This document shows, one piece after another, positions 3,843 through 45,759 of a stretch of 59,824 nucleotides of DNA. Within the stretch, counting starts at the first letter, position 1, and each line of letters begins with the position of its first letter. Both the position numbers and the translations under genes were made by a program. The notes under the pieces are model-generated. The model saw only the letters and a list, made by a program, of their open reading frames with translations, was not told the origin of the DNA and did no database searches. This DNA is from a virus (taxonomy: Duplodnaviria; Caudoviricetes), in the IMG/VR virus record IMGVR_UViG_3300017700_000824, positions 1 to 59,824 of that record; one strand, given 5' to 3'.

Positions 3843-4082
3843 CTACATCATAGCACCAGCTGGTGGGTTTGGTGGTGTTAAATTTCTACCTTTTTTCTTT
3901 AATGCTTCTTGAAATACTTTTGTTAATTTAGGTGGTGGTTCTGGTATGCCATTTAAATTATAATCAATTAATTCACATAACATATTAAACACTTCCATTT
4001 CATTAAAATAAACTGGTGGTTGTACGTCTTCATTTAATAATTGTTTATTAACTTTTTCGATAATTTTGCTTTTTGTACTCAT
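3843..4082 (-). CDS. Small hypothetical protein (possible head-internal protein)
   Basis: 79-aa ORF; N-terminus KIIEKVNKQLLNE; TATTTATA at 4092-4099. Confidence 0.55.
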   Translation of the reverse strand: MSTKSKIIEKVNKQLLNEDVQPPVYFNEMEVFNMLCELIDYNLNGIPEPPPKLTKVFQEALKKKGRNLTPPNPPAGAMM

Positions 4083-20642: not shown

Positions 20643-22295
20643 TTAATCAAGTATTTTTTTATATTCATCAATTATTTTTTTTGCCACTATTTCACTATTG
20701 AATTTTTCTAAATCCTCTGGTACATCATGTAGTTTTTTTGATAAGATATAACCAGTTGAATCAACATCGTATATCCAACCTTTTTTACCACATAACCAAC
20801 CCTCAATGGTGGTTCTACCTAGTAATATACCAGCTGTTATATCACACTGATTAATATACTCGGCAACATTAGCTGTCGGTGGTATATATGTAACATGGTC
20901 TTCTAACCCTAAATCAGCTTCTTTAACGCCATTATATTTACCTAACAACCAAAGTTCTTGGTTATTTGCTTTGGTCGTTTTAATCAAGTCTTTAATCGTT
21001 TCTAACCTTAAATAATCAATTGTTCCAACAAATAAAATTCGTTCTTTGATGGATTTAACTTTATTGATGGTAGGTTTAAACTTTGATGTGTCAATTGGAT
21101 TATAAACTACTTCAATATTATTTTCATCAATACCAAATCTATTAATCAAATAATCTTTTATCTCAGGTCTAATTGCTATGTATTTTTTTATCTGAGTATC
21201 AATAACTGGTTCTTCTAGATTAATTACTTCAGAATGTATTGATGAGATAATTGGTGTATCAGGATATAACCTTAAAATGTGTTCAGTAACTGGTTTGTGA
21301 TTACAATGAATAACATCAAAATTTACTGGTTTTAGTTGATATAAATTATTAGGTATTGACGTGACTTCTTCATTACCATTCATCAATTTCCATTTACCAT
21401 CACCTAATTTAAAACCTGGAGGTTCTTGAAGAGAGAATAGTTTTATACCTAATTTCTTAGCTTCAATTGTTAGTGGACCACCTAACGTAGAACAAATACT
21501 TACTTCGCAATTTTGTTTGATTAGTTGTTTAGCTAATTCAAAGACGTATAGTTCAGAACCAGTATAGTTAGCGAAACTTAAACAAGAAATCAAAACTTTT
21601 AGTTTCTGTCCAGAAGCAATTGTTTTTTTTATGTTAACTGGTAGATTATCTTTATGTTTTTCACTAAATAATAATCTATTGGTTTCCCAATCTTCATTAG
21701 TTATACCAATTGATTTATGGTTTATTCGAATTGTAGTTATTACACCTATCTTAGCACCTTGTAAATAATTGTCAAAACAAAAAGTAACATCATAAAAATG
21801 AAACCCTTTAACCTTCTCGTCAAAATTTGTTTTTAATTTTGTTTTATCAACCGCAAAAAACACCCCATCAACAATTACAGCATCTTCAACCTGTTGACCT
21901 AAATCATCTGAATATGTTGATAGCCAAGATTTGCCTTCATGTGTGTGTTTAACTCTACCATACATTTTTTTAGGGTTTTCCCACCATCTACCATTAGAAG
22001 GTAGGTATTTACTACCAGCAACACCTAAGATAGAATAATTTGGGTTATTAGCAAACATTTTTAAAAGCTTACTACCCCATTGTTTTGTTTCAATTGTTAT
22101 ATCATTATGACAAAATACTACATTGTCATAAATTGATTCAGATAGAATTTGATTGTAGCATTCAGTCAATGACCTATCGCCAGTATTAACTATTTCAATT
22201 ATTTGAATCCTTTTTGGGTCTAACCCACATGATTTTATTAAATGTTTAGAATGGTTTATATCCGATTCTTTAGTGCAATAGCCTATTGTTATCAT
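20643..22295 (-). CDS. Bifunctional glycosyltransferase: GT-A (GT2-like) plus GT-B (GT4-like)
   Basis: N-terminal YNQIL...VFCHND...GVAG...VDGVF...FHFYDV. C-terminal TGSELYVFELAKQL, VVYNPID, LFVGT, GRTTIEG. Confidence 0.85.
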   Translation of the reverse strand: MITIGYCTKESDINHSKHLIKSCGLDPKRIQIIEIVNTGDRSLTECYNQILSESIYDNVVFCHNDITIETKQWGSKLLKMFANNPNYSILGVAGSKYLPSNGRWWENPKKMYGRVKHTHEGKSWLSTYSDDLGQQVEDAVIVDGVFFAVDKTKLKTNFDEKVKGFHFYDVTFCFDNYLQGAKIGVITTIRINHKSIGITNEDWETNRLLFSEKHKDNLPVNIKKTIASGQKLKVLISCLSFANYTGSELYVFELAKQLIKQNCEVSICSTLGGPLTIEAKKLGIKLFSLQEPPGFKLGDGKWKLMNGNEEVTSIPNNLYQLKPVNFDVIHCNHKPVTEHILRLYPDTPIISSIHSEVINLEEPVIDTQIKKYIAIRPEIKDYLINRFGIDENNIEVVYNPIDTSKFKPTINKVKSIKERILFVGTIDYLRLETIKDLIKTTKANNQELWLLGKYNGVKEADLGLEDHVTYIPPTANVAEYINQCDITAGILLGRTTIEGWLCGKKGWIYDVDSTGYILSKKLHDVPEDLEKFNSEIVAKKIIDEYKKILD

Positions 22296-22345
22296 ATTTT
22301 AATTTATTATGTTTAAAAGTACTAAAAATTTTACAAAAAGTAAAC

Positions 22346-22373
22346 AAAAAAACCCCACTAATTAGTGAGGTTT
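22346..22373 (-). terminator. Rho-independent terminator closing the DIP1984-like gene plus ncRNA unit
   Basis: Minus strand reads AAACCTCACTAATTAGTGGGGTTTTTTT (hairpin followed by a U tract). Confidence 0.75.
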
Positions 22374-22375
22374 AA

Positions 22376-22622
22376 ATGTTCCCTTAACTTTTCCAATATT
22401 ATAGACCTTGTTACATACTAATGAGAATCGAACTCATTTTTAATACAATTTTTCATTTTTACTTATTTACTATTTACAGTTTGCGTTTTAGCGTCAACTT
22501 TTTTGAATAAAAATGTATTTTCGATTTTTTTCTAAAAATCGAAGAAACCTATTAAATGATTCGGCATTTACACCTATCAACACAAAGGGTGTTGAACCTT
22601 TTGTACTAGGTTAAAGGAATGT
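22376..22622 (-). ncRNA. Putative structured non-coding RNA (~245 nt) downstream of the DIP1984-like gene
   Basis: Largest intergenic gap in the window. 5' UUCCUUUAAC pairs with 3' GUUAAGGGAA; at least four internal hairpins, including AAUGAG-UUCGAUU-CUCAUU; A-rich repeated loop; terminator follows. Confidence 0.6.
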
Positions 22623-22624
22623 CG

Positions 22625-23149
22625 TTAAATAGTTAGATTTTCAACATCATTAAAATTGAATGATACCTCTATATCCTCTTGGTTTAATCTCTCAATTTGT
22701 GATTGGTACAACCTGATTTTGTCTTTACAAGACGATATTTTATCTTTAAACTCTGTAGAAGAGTTATAGGGTTTATATTCAATAGAAATAGATTTTCTAA
22801 TTGAGTTAAGATTTTCAAATCTATTAGTTTTTGATGGTTTTGTCTTACCTAAATTATTGGTGTAAACGCTTAACATTAATTTTTCGTTTTGAAGCTTACG
22901 CACAATTGAATCAATTGCTGTAACTTTGTTAAAAGCTGACAAAGTATTATTTATTTCTTCAGAAATAGCTAACCCTTTCAACAATGTTTCTTCAATGTCG
23001 TTGAATTTTTCTCTGTCTTGAGATACAATCTCACCATCCTCTGTCATTTCACCAAAAGAAGCATTATTGATGGCGTATTGTAATGTTTTAATAGCGTTAG
23101 CTATTTCGTTTTTTAAGCGTAAAGCTTCAGTAACAGTAATTTTTGTCAT
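22625..23149 (-). CDS. DIP1984/DUF6847-like coiled-coil protein
   Basis: TVTEALRLKNEI N-terminus, LSAFNKVT mid-motif and KIRLYQSQIERLN...IEV C-terminus match the family pattern by eye. Confidence 0.55.
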   Translation of the reverse strand: MTKITVTEALRLKNEIANAIKTLQYAINNASFGEMTEDGEIVSQDREKFNDIEETLLKGLAISEEINNTLSAFNKVTAIDSIVRKLQNEKLMLSVYTNNLGKTKPSKTNRFENLNSIRKSISIEYKPYNSSTEFKDKISSCKDKIRLYQSQIERLNQEDIEVSFNFNDVENLTI

Positions 23150-41654: not shown

Positions 41655-43433
41655 ATGGGTAACATAAAAAACTATAATTTCAATAAACTAAAACTTAATT
41701 TATCACATAGTGATTATTGGGATTTTTTCTTAGGTAATGATGAATATACACCTTCTAGTATTGATGTAATGACTGGTAGCTGTTTTGTTGTTTGGTATGA
41801 TTTCAATAATGTTTCCATCTATCCAAACAGTGCTACTACAGCTACTACTATTCATAGTCTTGTTACTTGGGATGATGCAGTAAATACTGGTTATACCTTA
41901 AATACTTTTGGTCTTACTGGTATTGACAATGGTTATATCCCATATATTAAGGATAATTTAGACCCAACAAATCAAAATTTAGTCGATTTGTTAACTGGAA
42001 GTACTTTATTAATTCCATCTGGTGATACTAGACTTACATTAAATTTAGTTAGTGGAAGTACCGAATCATTTGTTTATCCAACCCAGCGAATTATTGATGC
42101 AACACATGGTGATTATATGCAATTTTGTGGTGGTTTTTATCAAGGGTTCTATAAATTAGATGGATATAGTTATGAAGTTCTTCCAAATAGAGTAGAACAT
42201 GGTTGGGCTGCTGAGTTTTGGTTAAACCCACAAGATATATGTAGCGCAACAACAGCTACAACGCTTAACGATACATATCCCGATAACAAAGGAATGTTTT
42301 TTTATCTTGGTTCACGTGCTGAAAATAAATTTTGGAATAAATTTGAAGGTAATGACACTGGTTGTACTAGTGGTTGTACAACATCGTCTGCTTGTACTGG
42401 AACTGTTAGTACTTTTTGTACTGTTATTAAAGAAAATGAAGTTAGTATAATAGGTGATAATGGTTTTGCTATTCCTTTAGACCCACCTGCTGCTGAGTTT
42501 GAACTAATTACCAACACTTTCTTGATTTATGGTAGAGCGTATGATGCTAGCCAACCTATATTAACTGGTAATACTGGTGAATTTATTTTAACTGGAACTC
42601 CAAATACTATTGATGACTCTTGTTGTCATGTTGGTAGTTTAACTGGTCTTGGAACGAAGACAGTTTATAATTATGATGGTAATGGAATTATCATTAAAAA
42701 TGTTGATAAGGTAGAACCAACAACAAATCCTTTTTTAATTTATGGTAGAGGTGCTGGTATTATTAGTGGATGTACTTGTGGTTGCTGTGGACCACAGGAT
42801 GGTTTAGGAAATCAAACGATTTGTAGTTATACTGGTAATACAGTAACACAAGATGAAATAGATTATAATTTTGATGTTATTGATAACGCTTTAGGTTTTA
42901 GAATAAAAGATGATGGAAGTATTGGGTACCGATTATTAATGATGACTGGCTCTTGTAATGCTGATGATACTGTTTACACAAGTGGAGTTACAATTCAAGA
43001 AGAATATTCAAGTAGTGGTATGGTACCATCAAATATTTGGTCATATGTTGTTATTCGATTTGTTACAGATTTTAAAGAAGGATGTGATTTACAAAATTCA
43101 AAACCACGACTAGGTAAATTAATGTTTTATGTTAATGGATATTTAAAATTTGTTGTTGAAGAATTTCCTGAATTTATTGGAAGACGTTTAAATGAATATA
43201 AAGATAAACAAATGGGTGTTCCATTTAACATTAGTTTAGGTGGTGGTAGTCAAGGGTTACTTGAAAGTCAAACATTTGATGGTTTAGATATGGCTGATAG
43301 AGGTTTACCTATAGAAGATAATTTTGCTGGTAGTTTTATTGGTGGGATATCTCAATTCAAGTTTAATATTTGTGACTTACCATATGCTAAGATTAAAAAT
43401 AACTACTTATTAGATAAAAATAGATATTTATAA
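41655..43433 (+). CDS. Cys-rich putative virion protein, possibly with a LamG/ConA-like fold
   Basis: GWAAEFWL...WSYVVIRF...LMFYVNG...SFIGGISQFKF resemble LamG strands; lies between the two fibre genes. Confidence 0.55.
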   Translation: MGNIKNYNFNKLKLNLSHSDYWDFFLGNDEYTPSSIDVMTGSCFVVWYDFNNVSIYPNSATTATTIHSLVTWDDAVNTGYTLNTFGLTGIDNGYIPYIKDNLDPTNQNLVDLLTGSTLLIPSGDTRLTLNLVSGSTESFVYPTQRIIDATHGDYMQFCGGFYQGFYKLDGYSYEVLPNRVEHGWAAEFWLNPQDICSATTATTLNDTYPDNKGMFFYLGSRAENKFWNKFEGNDTGCTSGCTTSSACTGTVSTFCTVIKENEVSIIGDNGFAIPLDPPAAEFELITNTFLIYGRAYDASQPILTGNTGEFILTGTPNTIDDSCCHVGSLTGLGTKTVYNYDGNGIIIKNVDKVEPTTNPFLIYGRGAGIISGCTCGCCGPQDGLGNQTICSYTGNTVTQDEIDYNFDVIDNALGFRIKDDGSIGYRLLMMTGSCNADDTVYTSGVTIQEEYSSSGMVPSNIWSYVVIRFVTDFKEGCDLQNSKPRLGKLMFYVNGYLKFVVEEFPEFIGRRLNEYKDKQMGVPFNISLGGGSQGLLESQTFDGLDMADRGLPIEDNFAGSFIGGISQFKFNICDLPYAKIKNNYLLDKNRYL

Positions 43434-43446
43434 ATAAAAAAATACG

Positions 43447-45759
43447 ATGAATAATAACCTAATATTACGAACATTAGAAAGCCCTTTTAATGATAACACT
43501 AAACATAATGTTCTAAGTCAAGCTGATGTTGATAATAATTTTATTTATTTAAAAGGACAACTAATATATTCAGCAAATTCTTCTGATGGAATTGTTAATT
43601 TAGTTAAATACAATGGTGAAGCAATAACATTTAGTGGAGGTTCGAATTCTAATTTTTGGACTAGTGGTTCATCTGGTAATTATTCTATTATGGCTATTAA
43701 TGATAGTACTTTGGATGCCACTGGTGATTATTCATATGCTGAAGGGAATTCAACAACAGCTGCTGGTAGTTCATCACACGCTGAAGGTTATCAAACAATA
43801 GCTAGTGCTAATTATGCACATAGTGAAGGTCAAACAACTATAGCTGCTGGTCAAGCCTCACACGCTGAAGGAAATGGTTCAACTGCCAGTGGTGCATTCA
43901 GTCACGCTGAAGGTTTACAAACAAAAGCTACTAGTAATTTTGCACACGCTGAAGGTCAGCAAACAACTGCTTCTAATACTGGTGCACATGCTGAAGGTGG
44001 TGGTACAAGTGCATCTGGTACTTATGCACATGCTGAAGGTAGTAGTACTACTTCATCTGGTTTTGGTAGTCATTCAGAAGGAAATACAACAATAGCATCT
44101 GGTGATACATCACATGCCGAAGGAAATTCAACGATAGCTGGTGGTGCATATTCACATGCTGAAGGTCAAGGTTCAAGAGCTTTAGGTCAGATGAGTCATG
44201 CTGAAGGTAATGCAACAACAGCGTTAGGTCAATCTAGTCATGCTGAAGGTCAAAATACAACAGCTAGTGGTGTTACATCACATGCTGAAGGTATTTTTAC
44301 AACAGCTGGTAATTACGGTAGCCATGCTGAAGGTAATGGGACACTAGCTGTTGGTCAATCAACACACGCTGAAGGTCAAAATACAAAAGCTATTGGTAAT
44401 TTTTCACATAGTGAAGGTACTAATACATCAGCTATTGGAATATCAAGTCATGCTGAAGGACAAGGTACCTACGCATCTGGTTCAACAAGTCATGCTGAAG
44501 GTTTTAATACAATAGCAGTTGGTGATTATTCACATGCTGAAGGTAGTAGTACAACGACTATTGGTTTAATTAGTCATACCGAAGGTAGTTTTACAACTGC
44601 TATTGGGTTAACAGCACATGCTGAAGGGGCTAGTACAATAGCTCAAGGAGATTATAGTCATGCTGAAGGTGGGGGTTCAATTGCATTAGGTGATTACTCA
44701 CATAGTGAAGGTAATACTACAATAGCATCTGGTGCTGCTAGTCACTCTGAAGGTTATTTAACCATAGCATCTGGTGTTACATCACATGCTGAAGGTCGTG
44801 AAACAACAGCATTAAGTGATTATTCACATAGTGAAGGTCACAAAACACTAGCAAGTGGTGTTGCAAGTCACGCTGAAGGTGATGGAACAATAGCATTAGG
44901 TAATAACAGTCATGCTGAAGGATATATTACATCAGCAAATGGTCCATATAGTCATACAGAAGGTCAATTTACAATTGCAAATGGTGAATCGAGTCATGCT
45001 GAAGGTAATGCGACAGCCACTGGTGCTTTTGCGAGTCATGCTGAAGGTAGTGGAACATATACTAATGGTGATTCTAGTCATGCTGAAGGTGAAACAACGA
45101 TAACTTTTGGTAGAGCTAGTCATGCTGAAGGTAGTGGAACAACTGCACAAGGCGATTTCAGTCATGCTGAAGGTAATTTAACGATTAGTAGTGGTATTGC
45201 AAGTCACTCAGAAGGTCAATTAACAACTGCTATTAGCGATTCCAGTCATAGTGAAGGTCTCCTTACAACAGCATTAGGTGTTGCAAGTCACGCTGAAGGT
45301 GCTAGTACCACAGCAAGTGGTACTAGAGCGCATAGTGAAGGTGACCAAACGATAGCAAGTGGTGATGTATCACACGCTGAAGGTGGAAATACAATAGCAG
45401 CTGGTGGAAGTAGTCATGCTGAAGGTGCTTTAACAACAGCTATTGGTGACACAAGTCATGCTGAAGGTAATCAAACGACAGCTATTGGTCATTCAAGTCA
45501 TGCTGGTGGTTATAATACCGTAGCTACTGGTGATTATTCTTTTGTGTCTGGTTCTGGTTCATCAGCAAATGGAATAGGAACAGTAGTATTAGGTGGTGGT
45601 ATAACAGGAACAAAAGATAACACTATTTACGTTCCTAATTTGGTTATAACAAATATTAATAGCTATGTTGATGATGCGTCAGCTGATGCAGATACTAATT
45701 TAGATTCTGGTGAATTTTATTTATTAGATGGAAGTAGAATAGTTTATAGAAAACCATAA
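43447..45759 (+). CDS. Second SHAEG-repeat fibre/adhesin protein (770 aa)
   Basis: N-terminal LSQADVDNNFIYL (virion-attachment-like), ~41 SHAEG repeats, and the same end-cap module as the giant fibre. TATTTATA at 43425-43432. Confidence 0.8.
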   Translation: MNNNLILRTLESPFNDNTKHNVLSQADVDNNFIYLKGQLIYSANSSDGIVNLVKYNGEAITFSGGSNSNFWTSGSSGNYSIMAINDSTLDATGDYSYAEGNSTTAAGSSSHAEGYQTIASANYAHSEGQTTIAAGQASHAEGNGSTASGAFSHAEGLQTKATSNFAHAEGQQTTASNTGAHAEGGGTSASGTYAHAEGSSTTSSGFGSHSEGNTTIASGDTSHAEGNSTIAGGAYSHAEGQGSRALGQMSHAEGNATTALGQSSHAEGQNTTASGVTSHAEGIFTTAGNYGSHAEGNGTLAVGQSTHAEGQNTKAIGNFSHSEGTNTSAIGISSHAEGQGTYASGSTSHAEGFNTIAVGDYSHAEGSSTTTIGLISHTEGSFTTAIGLTAHAEGASTIAQGDYSHAEGGGSIALGDYSHSEGNTTIASGAASHSEGYLTIASGVTSHAEGRETTALSDYSHSEGHKTLASGVASHAEGDGTIALGNNSHAEGYITSANGPYSHTEGQFTIANGESSHAEGNATATGAFASHAEGSGTYTNGDSSHAEGETTITFGRASHAEGSGTTAQGDFSHAEGNLTISSGIASHSEGQLTTAISDSSHSEGLLTTALGVASHAEGASTTASGTRAHSEGDQTIASGDVSHAEGGNTIAAGGSSHAEGALTTAIGDTSHAEGNQTTAIGHSSHAGGYNTVATGDYSFVSGSGSSANGIGTVVLGGGITGTKDNTIYVPNLVITNINSYVDDASADADTNLDSGEFYLLDGSRIVYRKP

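Follow-up and report, generated by a model that had tools for sequence, protein, structure and literature searches.

The stretch analysed here, referred to as the window, is the whole of IMG/VR virus record IMGVR_UViG_3300017700_000824 (59,824 bases; G+C content, 31%). CheckV estimates its completeness at 18%, and the window is therefore a fragment of a phage genome of roughly 300 kb. We investigated a locus on its minus strand at which a gene for a helical protein of 174 amino acids (aa) lies at 22625 to 23149 and is followed by a closed RNA element of ~241 nucleotides (nt) at 22379 to 22619. The ORF list, an AlphaFold2 model, and profile and fold matches suggest that the protein is a remote member of the DUF6847/3KDQ-like family. 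The order on this strand is HD phosphohydrolase, dUTPase, the 174-aa open reading frame (ORF), 329 ORF-free bases, and a 550-aa double glycosyltransferase. The original prediction, made from the sequence of the window, had described the ORF-free stretch as the only large non-coding gap. This is roughly right: positions 22296 to 22624 contain no ORF of 40 aa or more, while ORFs of 79 and 87 aa are present in two further gaps of ~300 nt. A further gap of 192 nt is found at 1347 to 1538.

The element begins 5 nt past the stop codon of the 174-aa gene and ends 5 nt ahead of an intrinsic-terminator-like hairpin (22350 to 22373, minus strand). Of the 10 pairs in this hairpin, 4 are G-C, and a U run and then UUUUGUUUAC come after it. 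A terminator had been proposed at 22373 to 22346; the G+C-rich hairpin and U tract that mark an intrinsic terminator were found at 22373 to 22350. Hairpin-plus-U-tract sequences also stand 3′ of the element in related loci (numbered with the prefix L), namely, L008, L010 to L012, L014, L015, L017, L022, L035, and L045. With only 5 nt between stop codon and closing helix, and a terminator thereafter, the proposed cotranscription of gene and RNA is plausible.

The gene-RNA pair across related loci

To judge how common the protein is, we compared it with large sequence collections. A word-indexed protein search gave 15 close clusters among 62 candidates, and the family comprises 130 clusters (E of ≤0.001) among 1.84 billion representatives; the protein family is therefore rare. 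Relatives gathered by back-translated motif scans came from 6 viral, 43 metagenomic, and 4 genome-collection loci. By blastn, the window gap aligned colinearly, at 60 to 70% identity, to 29 of 47 stretches downstream of related genes, whose proteins are 27 to 58% identical. Conservation of the DNA behind the gene is hence no lower than that of the gene itself.

We then took a census of 38 distinct loci, all of them found through the protein. For this purpose, a covariance model (R1) was built from 12 sequences with our own structure. The element adjoins the gene in 37 of the 38 loci, lying downstream in 34 and upstream in 3. It was matched by R1 at the expected place with an E of ≤0.01 in 25 loci and more weakly in 4, including L036, where it is cut by the contig end, and L044, where a small ORF stands between gene and RNA. 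Five more (L008, L035, L040, L045, and L051) were recognised by the closing helix and motifs or by blastn. The remaining three (L048, L050, and L054) are GC-rich loci whose related RNA, of ~210 nt, is placed between a promoter-like TTGAC..TATCGT and the 5′ end of the gene. Their RNA has a similar closing helix, G(U/A)A directly after it, GAAA before the 3′ strand, a GACUCA(A/G)A anchor, and units of 7 to 8 nt. A strict rule (helix, A[GCA]UA, GAA[AC], and two adjacent GUA spacings of 7 to 8 nt) is specific, in that 1 of 400 random starts passes, but it misses many true elements; we used it only as support for L008, L040, L045, and L051.

Little else is constant around the pair, and the next best neighbour family is found in 6 of 34 loci. 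R1 found a single copy per record in four of five records (the window and the records of three relatives, one of them a complete genome of 518.8 kb with terminal repeats); the element in the fifth record is too divergent for R1. In L021, a weak second R1 match (3977 to 4042; 16.8 bits; E of 0.42) lies ~175 nt past the element and is probably due to chance. In L044 (2783 to 2998), and also in L046 and L047, the small ORF between the helical-protein gene and the RNA carries CxxC...CPxC cysteine pairs.

We also looked for the element by pattern in IMG/VR. The pattern GTAAAAAG..GGTTCGANTCC..GTATG gave no match. A looser pattern matched 84 stretches, of which 80 were examined; 4 of these were the element, all in known contigs and all with the gene. 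The pattern ATAGGT..CCGAAT..ATAG matched at least 120 loci, and none of the matches listed was the element. A tblastn search of 50,697 phage records with the window protein and with P0141, a distant family member, gave no match. The pair is the only constant across loci with varying neighbours, and it survives a swap of gene order (L048, L050, and L054). These comparisons support the view that gene and RNA form a conserved two-part module, as had been proposed. The proposed setting of the module, between dut and a glycosyltransferase operon, applies to the nearest relatives only; in huge phages that are more distantly related, a tRNA array follows the pair.

An RNA held so close to one gene might be an autoregulatory cis element within the protein's own mRNA, a 3′ UTR (untranslated region) here and a 5′ leader in the GC-rich clade, which the protein would bind only to control its own synthesis or the stability of its mRNA, as with ribosomal-protein leaders. 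RNA and gene always lie on one transcript-sized unit with almost no spacer, and in L048, L050, and L054 the RNA stands between the promoter-like sequence and the start codon, both of which are as this explanation would have it. However, most loci place the RNA between stop codon and terminator, a poor site for translational control, and the same RNA apparently works on either side of the gene. Moreover, a body of 210 to 290 nt with at least five covarying helices, an optional T-loop, and hypervariable bases (all described below) far exceeds what known feedback operators need. We therefore consider autoregulation unlikely.

Structure and covariation of the RNA

All the pairings and coordinates listed in the original prediction were borne out by the letters of the window. 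The terminal helix, P1, pairs UUCCUUUAAC (22610 to 22619) with GUUAAGGGAA (22379 to 22388) over 10 bp; all features described here are on the minus strand. When 32 elements were aligned with plain MAFFT (alignment A2), P1 contributed seven aligned pairs; these were 96.4% paired, with compensatory changes in every one. Directly inside P1 is an (almost) invariant AGUA (22604 to 22607), which faces GAA across the junction of P1 with a second long-range helix, P2. The only invariant letters in the entire RNA are the A, U, and A of AGUA and the AA of GAA, opposed between the two helices (A2 columns A15, T17, A18, A230, and A231, with G229 nearly so). ACUA or AAUA replaces AGUA in three relatives. 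We take the AGUA/GAA junction to resemble the signature of a loop-E or bulged-G module. A local hairpin like the sarcin-ricin loop (AGUA-C-GNRA-G-GA) was ruled out, as the 3′ side reads GGU and not GA(A/C).

P2 is a helix of 3 bp that joins the bases after AGUA to those before GAA; its 3′ strand, UUG, is followed by GAAAA (22389 to 22396). P2 was 85.3% paired in A2, with changes on both sides in all three pairs. Three hairpins follow. For these, we realigned the elements with R1 to give alignment A6, in which pairing is inflated by the fit to the R1 structure. Hairpin H1, UCAACAC-CCUUU-GUGUUGA (22577 to 22595), was 89.9% paired in A6, with double changes in 6 of 6 pairs, and 86.1% paired in A2. 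The corresponding A6 values were 83.4% and 8 of 8 pairs for P3 (UAAAUG-CCGAAU-CAUUUA; 22553 to 22570) and 75.7% and 7 of 8 pairs for P4 (UUCGAUUUUU-AGAA-AAAAAUCGAA; 22520 to 22543). Taken together, H1, P3, and P4 had double changes in 21 of 22 pairs. The H1 loop CCUUU could form a pseudoknot with the purines AAAGG after P2 (22597 to 22601), a candidate that was 67.4% paired compared with 61.9% in shuffled alignments, a value reached by 3 of 500 shuffles. A long stem predicted to pair AAUACAUUUUUAUU with AAUGAAAAAUUGUAUU is present in the minimum free energy (MFE) fold of the window, where it surrounds the repeat tract described below. It has no conserved or covarying counterpart in the relatives, as judged by eye on an alignment.

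Overall in A2, 87.5% of cells paired, compared with 64.7% in shuffled alignments, and 150 cells had changed on both sides, compared with 45; none of 500 shuffles reached these values. Slid controls gave 27 to 53% pairing. With the inflation noted above, A6 gave 82.5% pairing versus 58.7% and 143 double-change cells versus 52, again reached by 0 of 500 shuffles. From the MAFFT alignments, RNAalifold retrieved no more than P1, P2, and some of H1. This was due to misaligned hairpin registers, for which reason a column-pair scan also gave little, and the covariance model was used instead. Covariation was thus found in the closing helix, the second long-range helix, and the three hairpins (P1, P2, H1, P3, and P4), for the terminal helix and hairpins just as the original prediction would have it.

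When folded singly, the 245-nt element had an MFE of −48.8 kcal/mol (z = −3.50), which none of 200 shuffles equalled. The opposite strand was nearly equal (z = −3.33). Single-sequence folding is therefore weak evidence, and the proof is comparative. From the comparison of related sequences, we concluded that the element is a conserved structured RNA and not a product of chance.

We considered whether conservation could act at the level of DNA, with the repeats as protein-binding iterons or as part of an origin or packaging site and the helices as DNA cruciforms or hairpins. Iteron systems likewise have short direct repeats beside a gene for a small basic protein. Besides folding nearly as well, the opposite strand fits nearly as many pair cells: a strand test based on G·U pairs gave 476 cells for one strand and 464 for the other (490 and 482 in a second comparison). 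Nevertheless, a period of 7 to 8 bp does not match the helical repeat of DNA, and long-range helices that close 230 to 290 nt, compensatory changes, and the AGUA/GAA junction are typical of RNA. Furthermore, the orientation of the element relative to the gene is always the same, and the terminator follows on that strand. A DNA-level element is, in our judgement, very unlikely.

A weak hint of transcription, which also speaks for RNA rather than DNA, comes from a single RNA-library run, in which a 153-nt contig covers 22379 to 22520 at ~95% identity, with 7 other letters and 1 gap. The contig stops at 22379, the last base of P1; as this is one study, we did not count it as an RNA end. In two other runs, short contigs match the RNA (22445 to 22603) at 95 to 100%, and the adjoining gene pieces are more divergent, differing at 3 of 151 and 21 of 183 positions.

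The periodic tract, the helical protein, and a putative ribonucleoprotein

The 3′ half of the RNA has a conserved GUUGACGCUAAAACGC-type anchor followed by periodic units (22438 to 22498), seen in GUA spacing, in a unit logo, and with Tandem Repeats Finder (TRF). The last 135 nt of the 32 elements contain 3 to 10 GUA triplets, with a mean of 5.8 compared with 2.7 in mononucleotide shuffles. These are spaced by 7 nt (40 times) or 8 nt (37 times) in 77 of 153 cases. The unit reads G-U-A-A-A-(A)-N-N with a period of 7 to 8 nt. Its information content is 2.0, 2.0, 2.0, 1.1 to 1.2, and 1.1 to 1.3 bits at positions 1 to 5, compared with 0.1 to 0.4 bits at the last two. TRF reported a 7-nt period with 2.6 copies on the tract. 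Between close relatives (five groups), the NN bases differ at a rate of 0.536, compared with 0.156 for the constant positions and 0.252 for the rest of the RNA; this comparison rests on 12 units only, and we therefore treat hypervariability of the NN bases as a lead.

Between the tract and a conserved AGUAUGAAAAUGG, 23 of 32 elements have a T-arm-like GGUUCGAUUCC hairpin, an optional module that in the window reads AUGAG-UUCGAUU-CUCAU (22421 to 22437) and was 73.9% paired in A2. A conserved AGUAUG(U/A)AA motif (22410 to 22419) lies 3′ of it in alignments of relatives. The 5′ strand of P4 (22534 to 22543) opens with UUCGAUU, a heptamer that recurs as the loop of the T-arm-like hairpin (22426 to 22432).

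Phage tRNA genes are also found near the pair, which lies upstream of a tRNA array in 13 of 39 loci scanned; any tRNA was found in 15 of the 39. In L003, L007, L021, and L027 to L034, the arrays begin 0.4 to 0.9 kb downstream of the element. Their order is fixed (Phe, Phe, Ser, Ser, Asn, Asn, His ...), often with pairs of the same anticodon, and several of the Asn, His, and Lys tRNAs were called at 86 to 90 nt, which is unusually long. Phages with these arrays have a conserved small ORF (M.EKLT.VNSRKEF...) after the RNA (L003, 3847 to 4092; just past the element in L028 and L033), so that the apparently empty DNA ahead of the tRNAs is coding in part.

Both the T-arm-like hairpin and the position ahead of tRNA arrays would suit an RNA that acts mainly alone or with host factors, either as a tRNA-related decoy or sponge against a host defence that targets tRNA or as an A-rich sponge of the Hfq type. 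The neighbouring gene would then be syntenic but unrelated, or its product only a chaperone. A makes up 42% of the tract, and UGUAAA resembles the anticodon loop of tRNA-Tyr. However, 9 of 32 elements lack the hairpin, which is thus not essential, and the base preceding GUA varies. That the RNA is strictly paired with a single rare protein family, in turn, argues for a dedicated partner. We consider a stand-alone RNA unlikely as well.

The nature of that partner was sought by profile and structure comparison. An AlphaFold2 model from 42 sequences (mean predicted local distance difference test [pLDDT] score, 93.7) has four long helices and a small sheet. The best match was PDB entry 3KDQ both in an hmmsearch of PDB (E of 0.0064) and with Foldseek (E of 8.2e-3; probability of 1.00), although the template modelling score was only 0.46 to 0.51; prefoldin beta came next. 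Entry 3KDQ is the structure of an uncharacterised Corynebacterium diphtheriae protein. We take this protein to be the one named DIP1984. We also compared our family profile (A3) with P0141, which scores 31.3 bits on PF20935 (gathering cut-off, 27 bits). hhalign joined the two with a probability of 94.4% and an E of 8.8e-8 over 153 columns, and an N-terminal EA(L/F)RL(K/R)N motif is common to both. In atlas clusters of look-alikes, 14 to 19% of members carry PF20935. A direct PF20935 scan gave no match to the window protein at an E of ≤1, to any of the 42 aligned members at an E of ≤0.01, or to the window in six frames, and direct searches of Pfam, NCBIfam, and PHROGs with the protein yielded nothing significant. 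Profile comparison and fold thus identify the protein as a remote relative of DUF6847 (PF20935), one that falls below the gathering cut-off when scanned directly. The original assignment to the DIP1984/DUF6847 family was right in this sense of remote homology.

The invariant residues of the protein are mostly basic or polar (R11, K13, N14, N88, and R146). A model of a four-copy complex scored 0.64, compared with 0.00 for the best control; runs agreed in at least 94% of contacts, and the pLDDT score of the partner was at least 86. Of 30 proteins solved as same-chain pairs, 20 attained a score of 0.64, as did 1 of 23 single-chain proteins; these calibration counts are only rough, since our model used its own alignment and four copies. 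The modelling supports self-association of the protein.

We propose that gene and RNA supply the two components of a dedicated ribonucleoprotein in huge phages, a reading to which we assign a probability of roughly 55%. It is favoured because of the conservation of the two parts, the covariation of the RNA, the periodicity of its tract, and the co-occurrence of RNA and gene. A single transcript would carry the protein gene and the RNA, with the RNA 3′ of the gene and ending at the terminator in this clade and 5′ of the gene in the GC-rich clade. The RNA would fold into a closed body, made up of P1, the AGUA/GAA junction, the short P2, three hairpins, and, optionally, the T-loop hairpin. This body would present a single-stranded tract of 3 to 10 GUAAA(A)NN units with a period of 7 to 8 nt. 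Several copies of the DUF6847-like protein, probably dimers, may then grip the constant GUAAA, one unit each, in a putative binding mode for which the structured RNA ends would act as a handle. Binding of the RNA by the protein, the stoichiometry, processing, and any downstream activity are what we infer from the sequences.

Several observations weigh against this proposal. The modelled interface is symmetric and dimer-like, not of the ring or filament type that would be an obvious reader of a periodic tract, and the GUA units are few and differ in number between elements (3 to 10). No element was seen in L042, a contig of 1,970 nt in which the gene lies between tRNAs. The strand is told neither by single-sequence folds nor by the count of pair cells, and the A6 pairing values owe something to the fitted structure. 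Lastly, the RNA-library contig may stem from DNA, which such libraries can contain, and contigs show no ends.

If a ribonucleoprotein is formed, it would provide a first handle on DUF6847/DIP1984, a family with a solved structure and no known function, together with a new class of large phage RNA. Since the pair stands at the head of tRNA arrays in genomes as large as 518 kb, it may also bear on translation in huge phages or on conflict between phages. At ~0.8 kb, the module is small enough to be synthesised and tested without culturing the phage.

Known systems and neighbouring features

We compared the element with known RNA families. Rfam 15 gave 0 matches at gathering scores in the whole window, and, at an E of ≤10, positions 22250 to 22700 gave only sub-threshold chance rows, the best with 26.7 bits against a cut-off of 49. 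On 20 related loci, 43 of 43 Rfam matches were tRNAs outside the element. No Rfam family therefore explains the RNA, a check that the original prediction had named. As for tRNA and tmRNA, ARAGORN found 0 genes in the window and no RF00005 row was obtained at an E of ≤10; the T-arm-like hairpin is the only likeness. RNase P-like, tmRNA-like, 6S-like, put/EAR-type antiterminator, and phi29 pRNA-like readings were also considered and had no Rfam support.

In the literature, we found no paper on DUF6847 or this RNA, although the supplements of two surveys might list fragments. A search for DIP1984 returned a single paper, whose accessible part appeared unrelated. Of the surveys, Fremin et al. 2023 (PMC10690425) report, in the portion available, candidate phage RNAs of 29 to 151 nt, and the supplements could include a fragment of this RNA. 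A further report (10.64898/2026.10.21.760802) describes 7- and 8-nt periodic arrays with no partner protein and another architecture, and its accessible text contains neither "DUF6847" nor "heptad". We concluded that the element is uncatalogued in Rfam 15 and absent from the literature found.

The closest published parallel in logic is VIPR (10.64898/2026.04.26.720920). According to the available part of that report, Vipr is a protein of RAMP/RRM fold, and its vrRNA, of ~100 nt, has 9 to 16 YNNGG units whose NN bases read DNA. Each system is a minimal, phage-encoded locus in which one small protein gene adjoins a non-coding RNA. In each, a fixed motif alternates with two hypervariable bases, here GUAAA(A) with NN as the most variable class, and a structured, conserved end serves, or here could serve, as a handle. 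In contrast to Vipr, the protein described here combines a helical hairpin with a beta-sheet, and no Cas5/6/7 or RAMP protein was among the 50 fold matches listed. The vrRNA has 5-nt units and an invariable 3′ tail, whereas the RNA here is closed, 210 to 290 nt long, and has 3 to 10 units with a period of 7 to 8 nt. There is no counterpart here of the vap gene mentioned in that report. DNA targeting has been shown for VIPR; here it would be hypothetical. As fold, period, and RNA architecture differ, the module is not a member of VIPR.

The fixed GUAAA and the two fast-changing bases nonetheless recall VIPR guide RNAs, and there is therefore a testable chance of a second, unrelated recognition system coded in repeats. 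In such an independently evolved "noncontiguous code" guide system, the protein would lock GUAAA and expose the NN pairs to read a gapped nucleic-acid target. By analogy with VIPR, where a RAMP protein works with 5-nt units, the target might lie in a competing phage or in the host. We regard a guide function as quite unlikely. If it were true, huge phages that carry the pair would hold a new family of programmable RNA-guided effectors.

Type III toxin-antitoxin (ToxIN-like) systems have tandem RNA repeats of ~34 to 36 nt beside a gene for an endoribonuclease toxin. The earlier suggestion of a type III-like pair was not supported, as there are no tandem units of ~36 nt (TRF gave the 7-nt period only) and no nuclease fold among the fold matches. 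The Bacillus proteins TRAP (trp leader) and HutP (hut mRNA) bind evenly spaced triplets in single-stranded RNA, one per subunit of the oligomer. Evenly spaced short triplets in a predicted single-stranded tract are found here too. However, the TRAP and HutP sites are cis leaders with spacers of 2 to 4 nt, read by ring proteins of other folds, whereas the RNA described here is closed and has many helices and the protein is modelled as a dimer.

The bacterial Y RNAs (YrlA) of Ro60 (Rsr) systems are closed by an end helix and contain a tRNA-like T-arm module, and their genes adjoin that of the protein partner. The module described here shares the terminal closing helix, the T-arm module, and the gene beside the RNA. 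Unlike those systems, it has no Ro/TROVE protein and no Rfam Y-RNA match; in addition, its RNA far exceeds Y RNAs in size, and some elements do without the T-arm. ROOL and GOLLD are large, ornate phage RNAs, often near tRNA genes, with no known job. The RNA here differs from both in being smaller and tied to one protein gene, and it has no Rfam match even at an E of ≤10.

Phage T5 (AY543070) has a similar arrangement, in which T5.085 (212 aa, hypothetical) is followed by an unannotated, ORF-free stretch of 363 nt with AAAG-type 7-nt units. hhalign of T5.085 with A3 gave a probability of 0.7%, and neither the PF20935 nor the A3 profile matches the T5 record; homology of T5.085 to the family was therefore not confirmed. 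The 363-nt stretch lies at 43142 to 43504 of AY543070 (21143 to 21505 of L261, minus strand), and the same record annotates seven "stable RNAs with unknown functions" in the tRNA region.

On the far side of the terminator, before the glycosyltransferase gene, the window has a conserved promoter-like stretch (CTTTAC..TAT..TATATTTAAAA; 22296 to 22349) without a sigma-70 consensus. The same stretch stands at the equivalent place in L010, L014, L015, L017, and L022, and in these five loci, as in the window, the glycosyltransferase begins with M.T..YCT.

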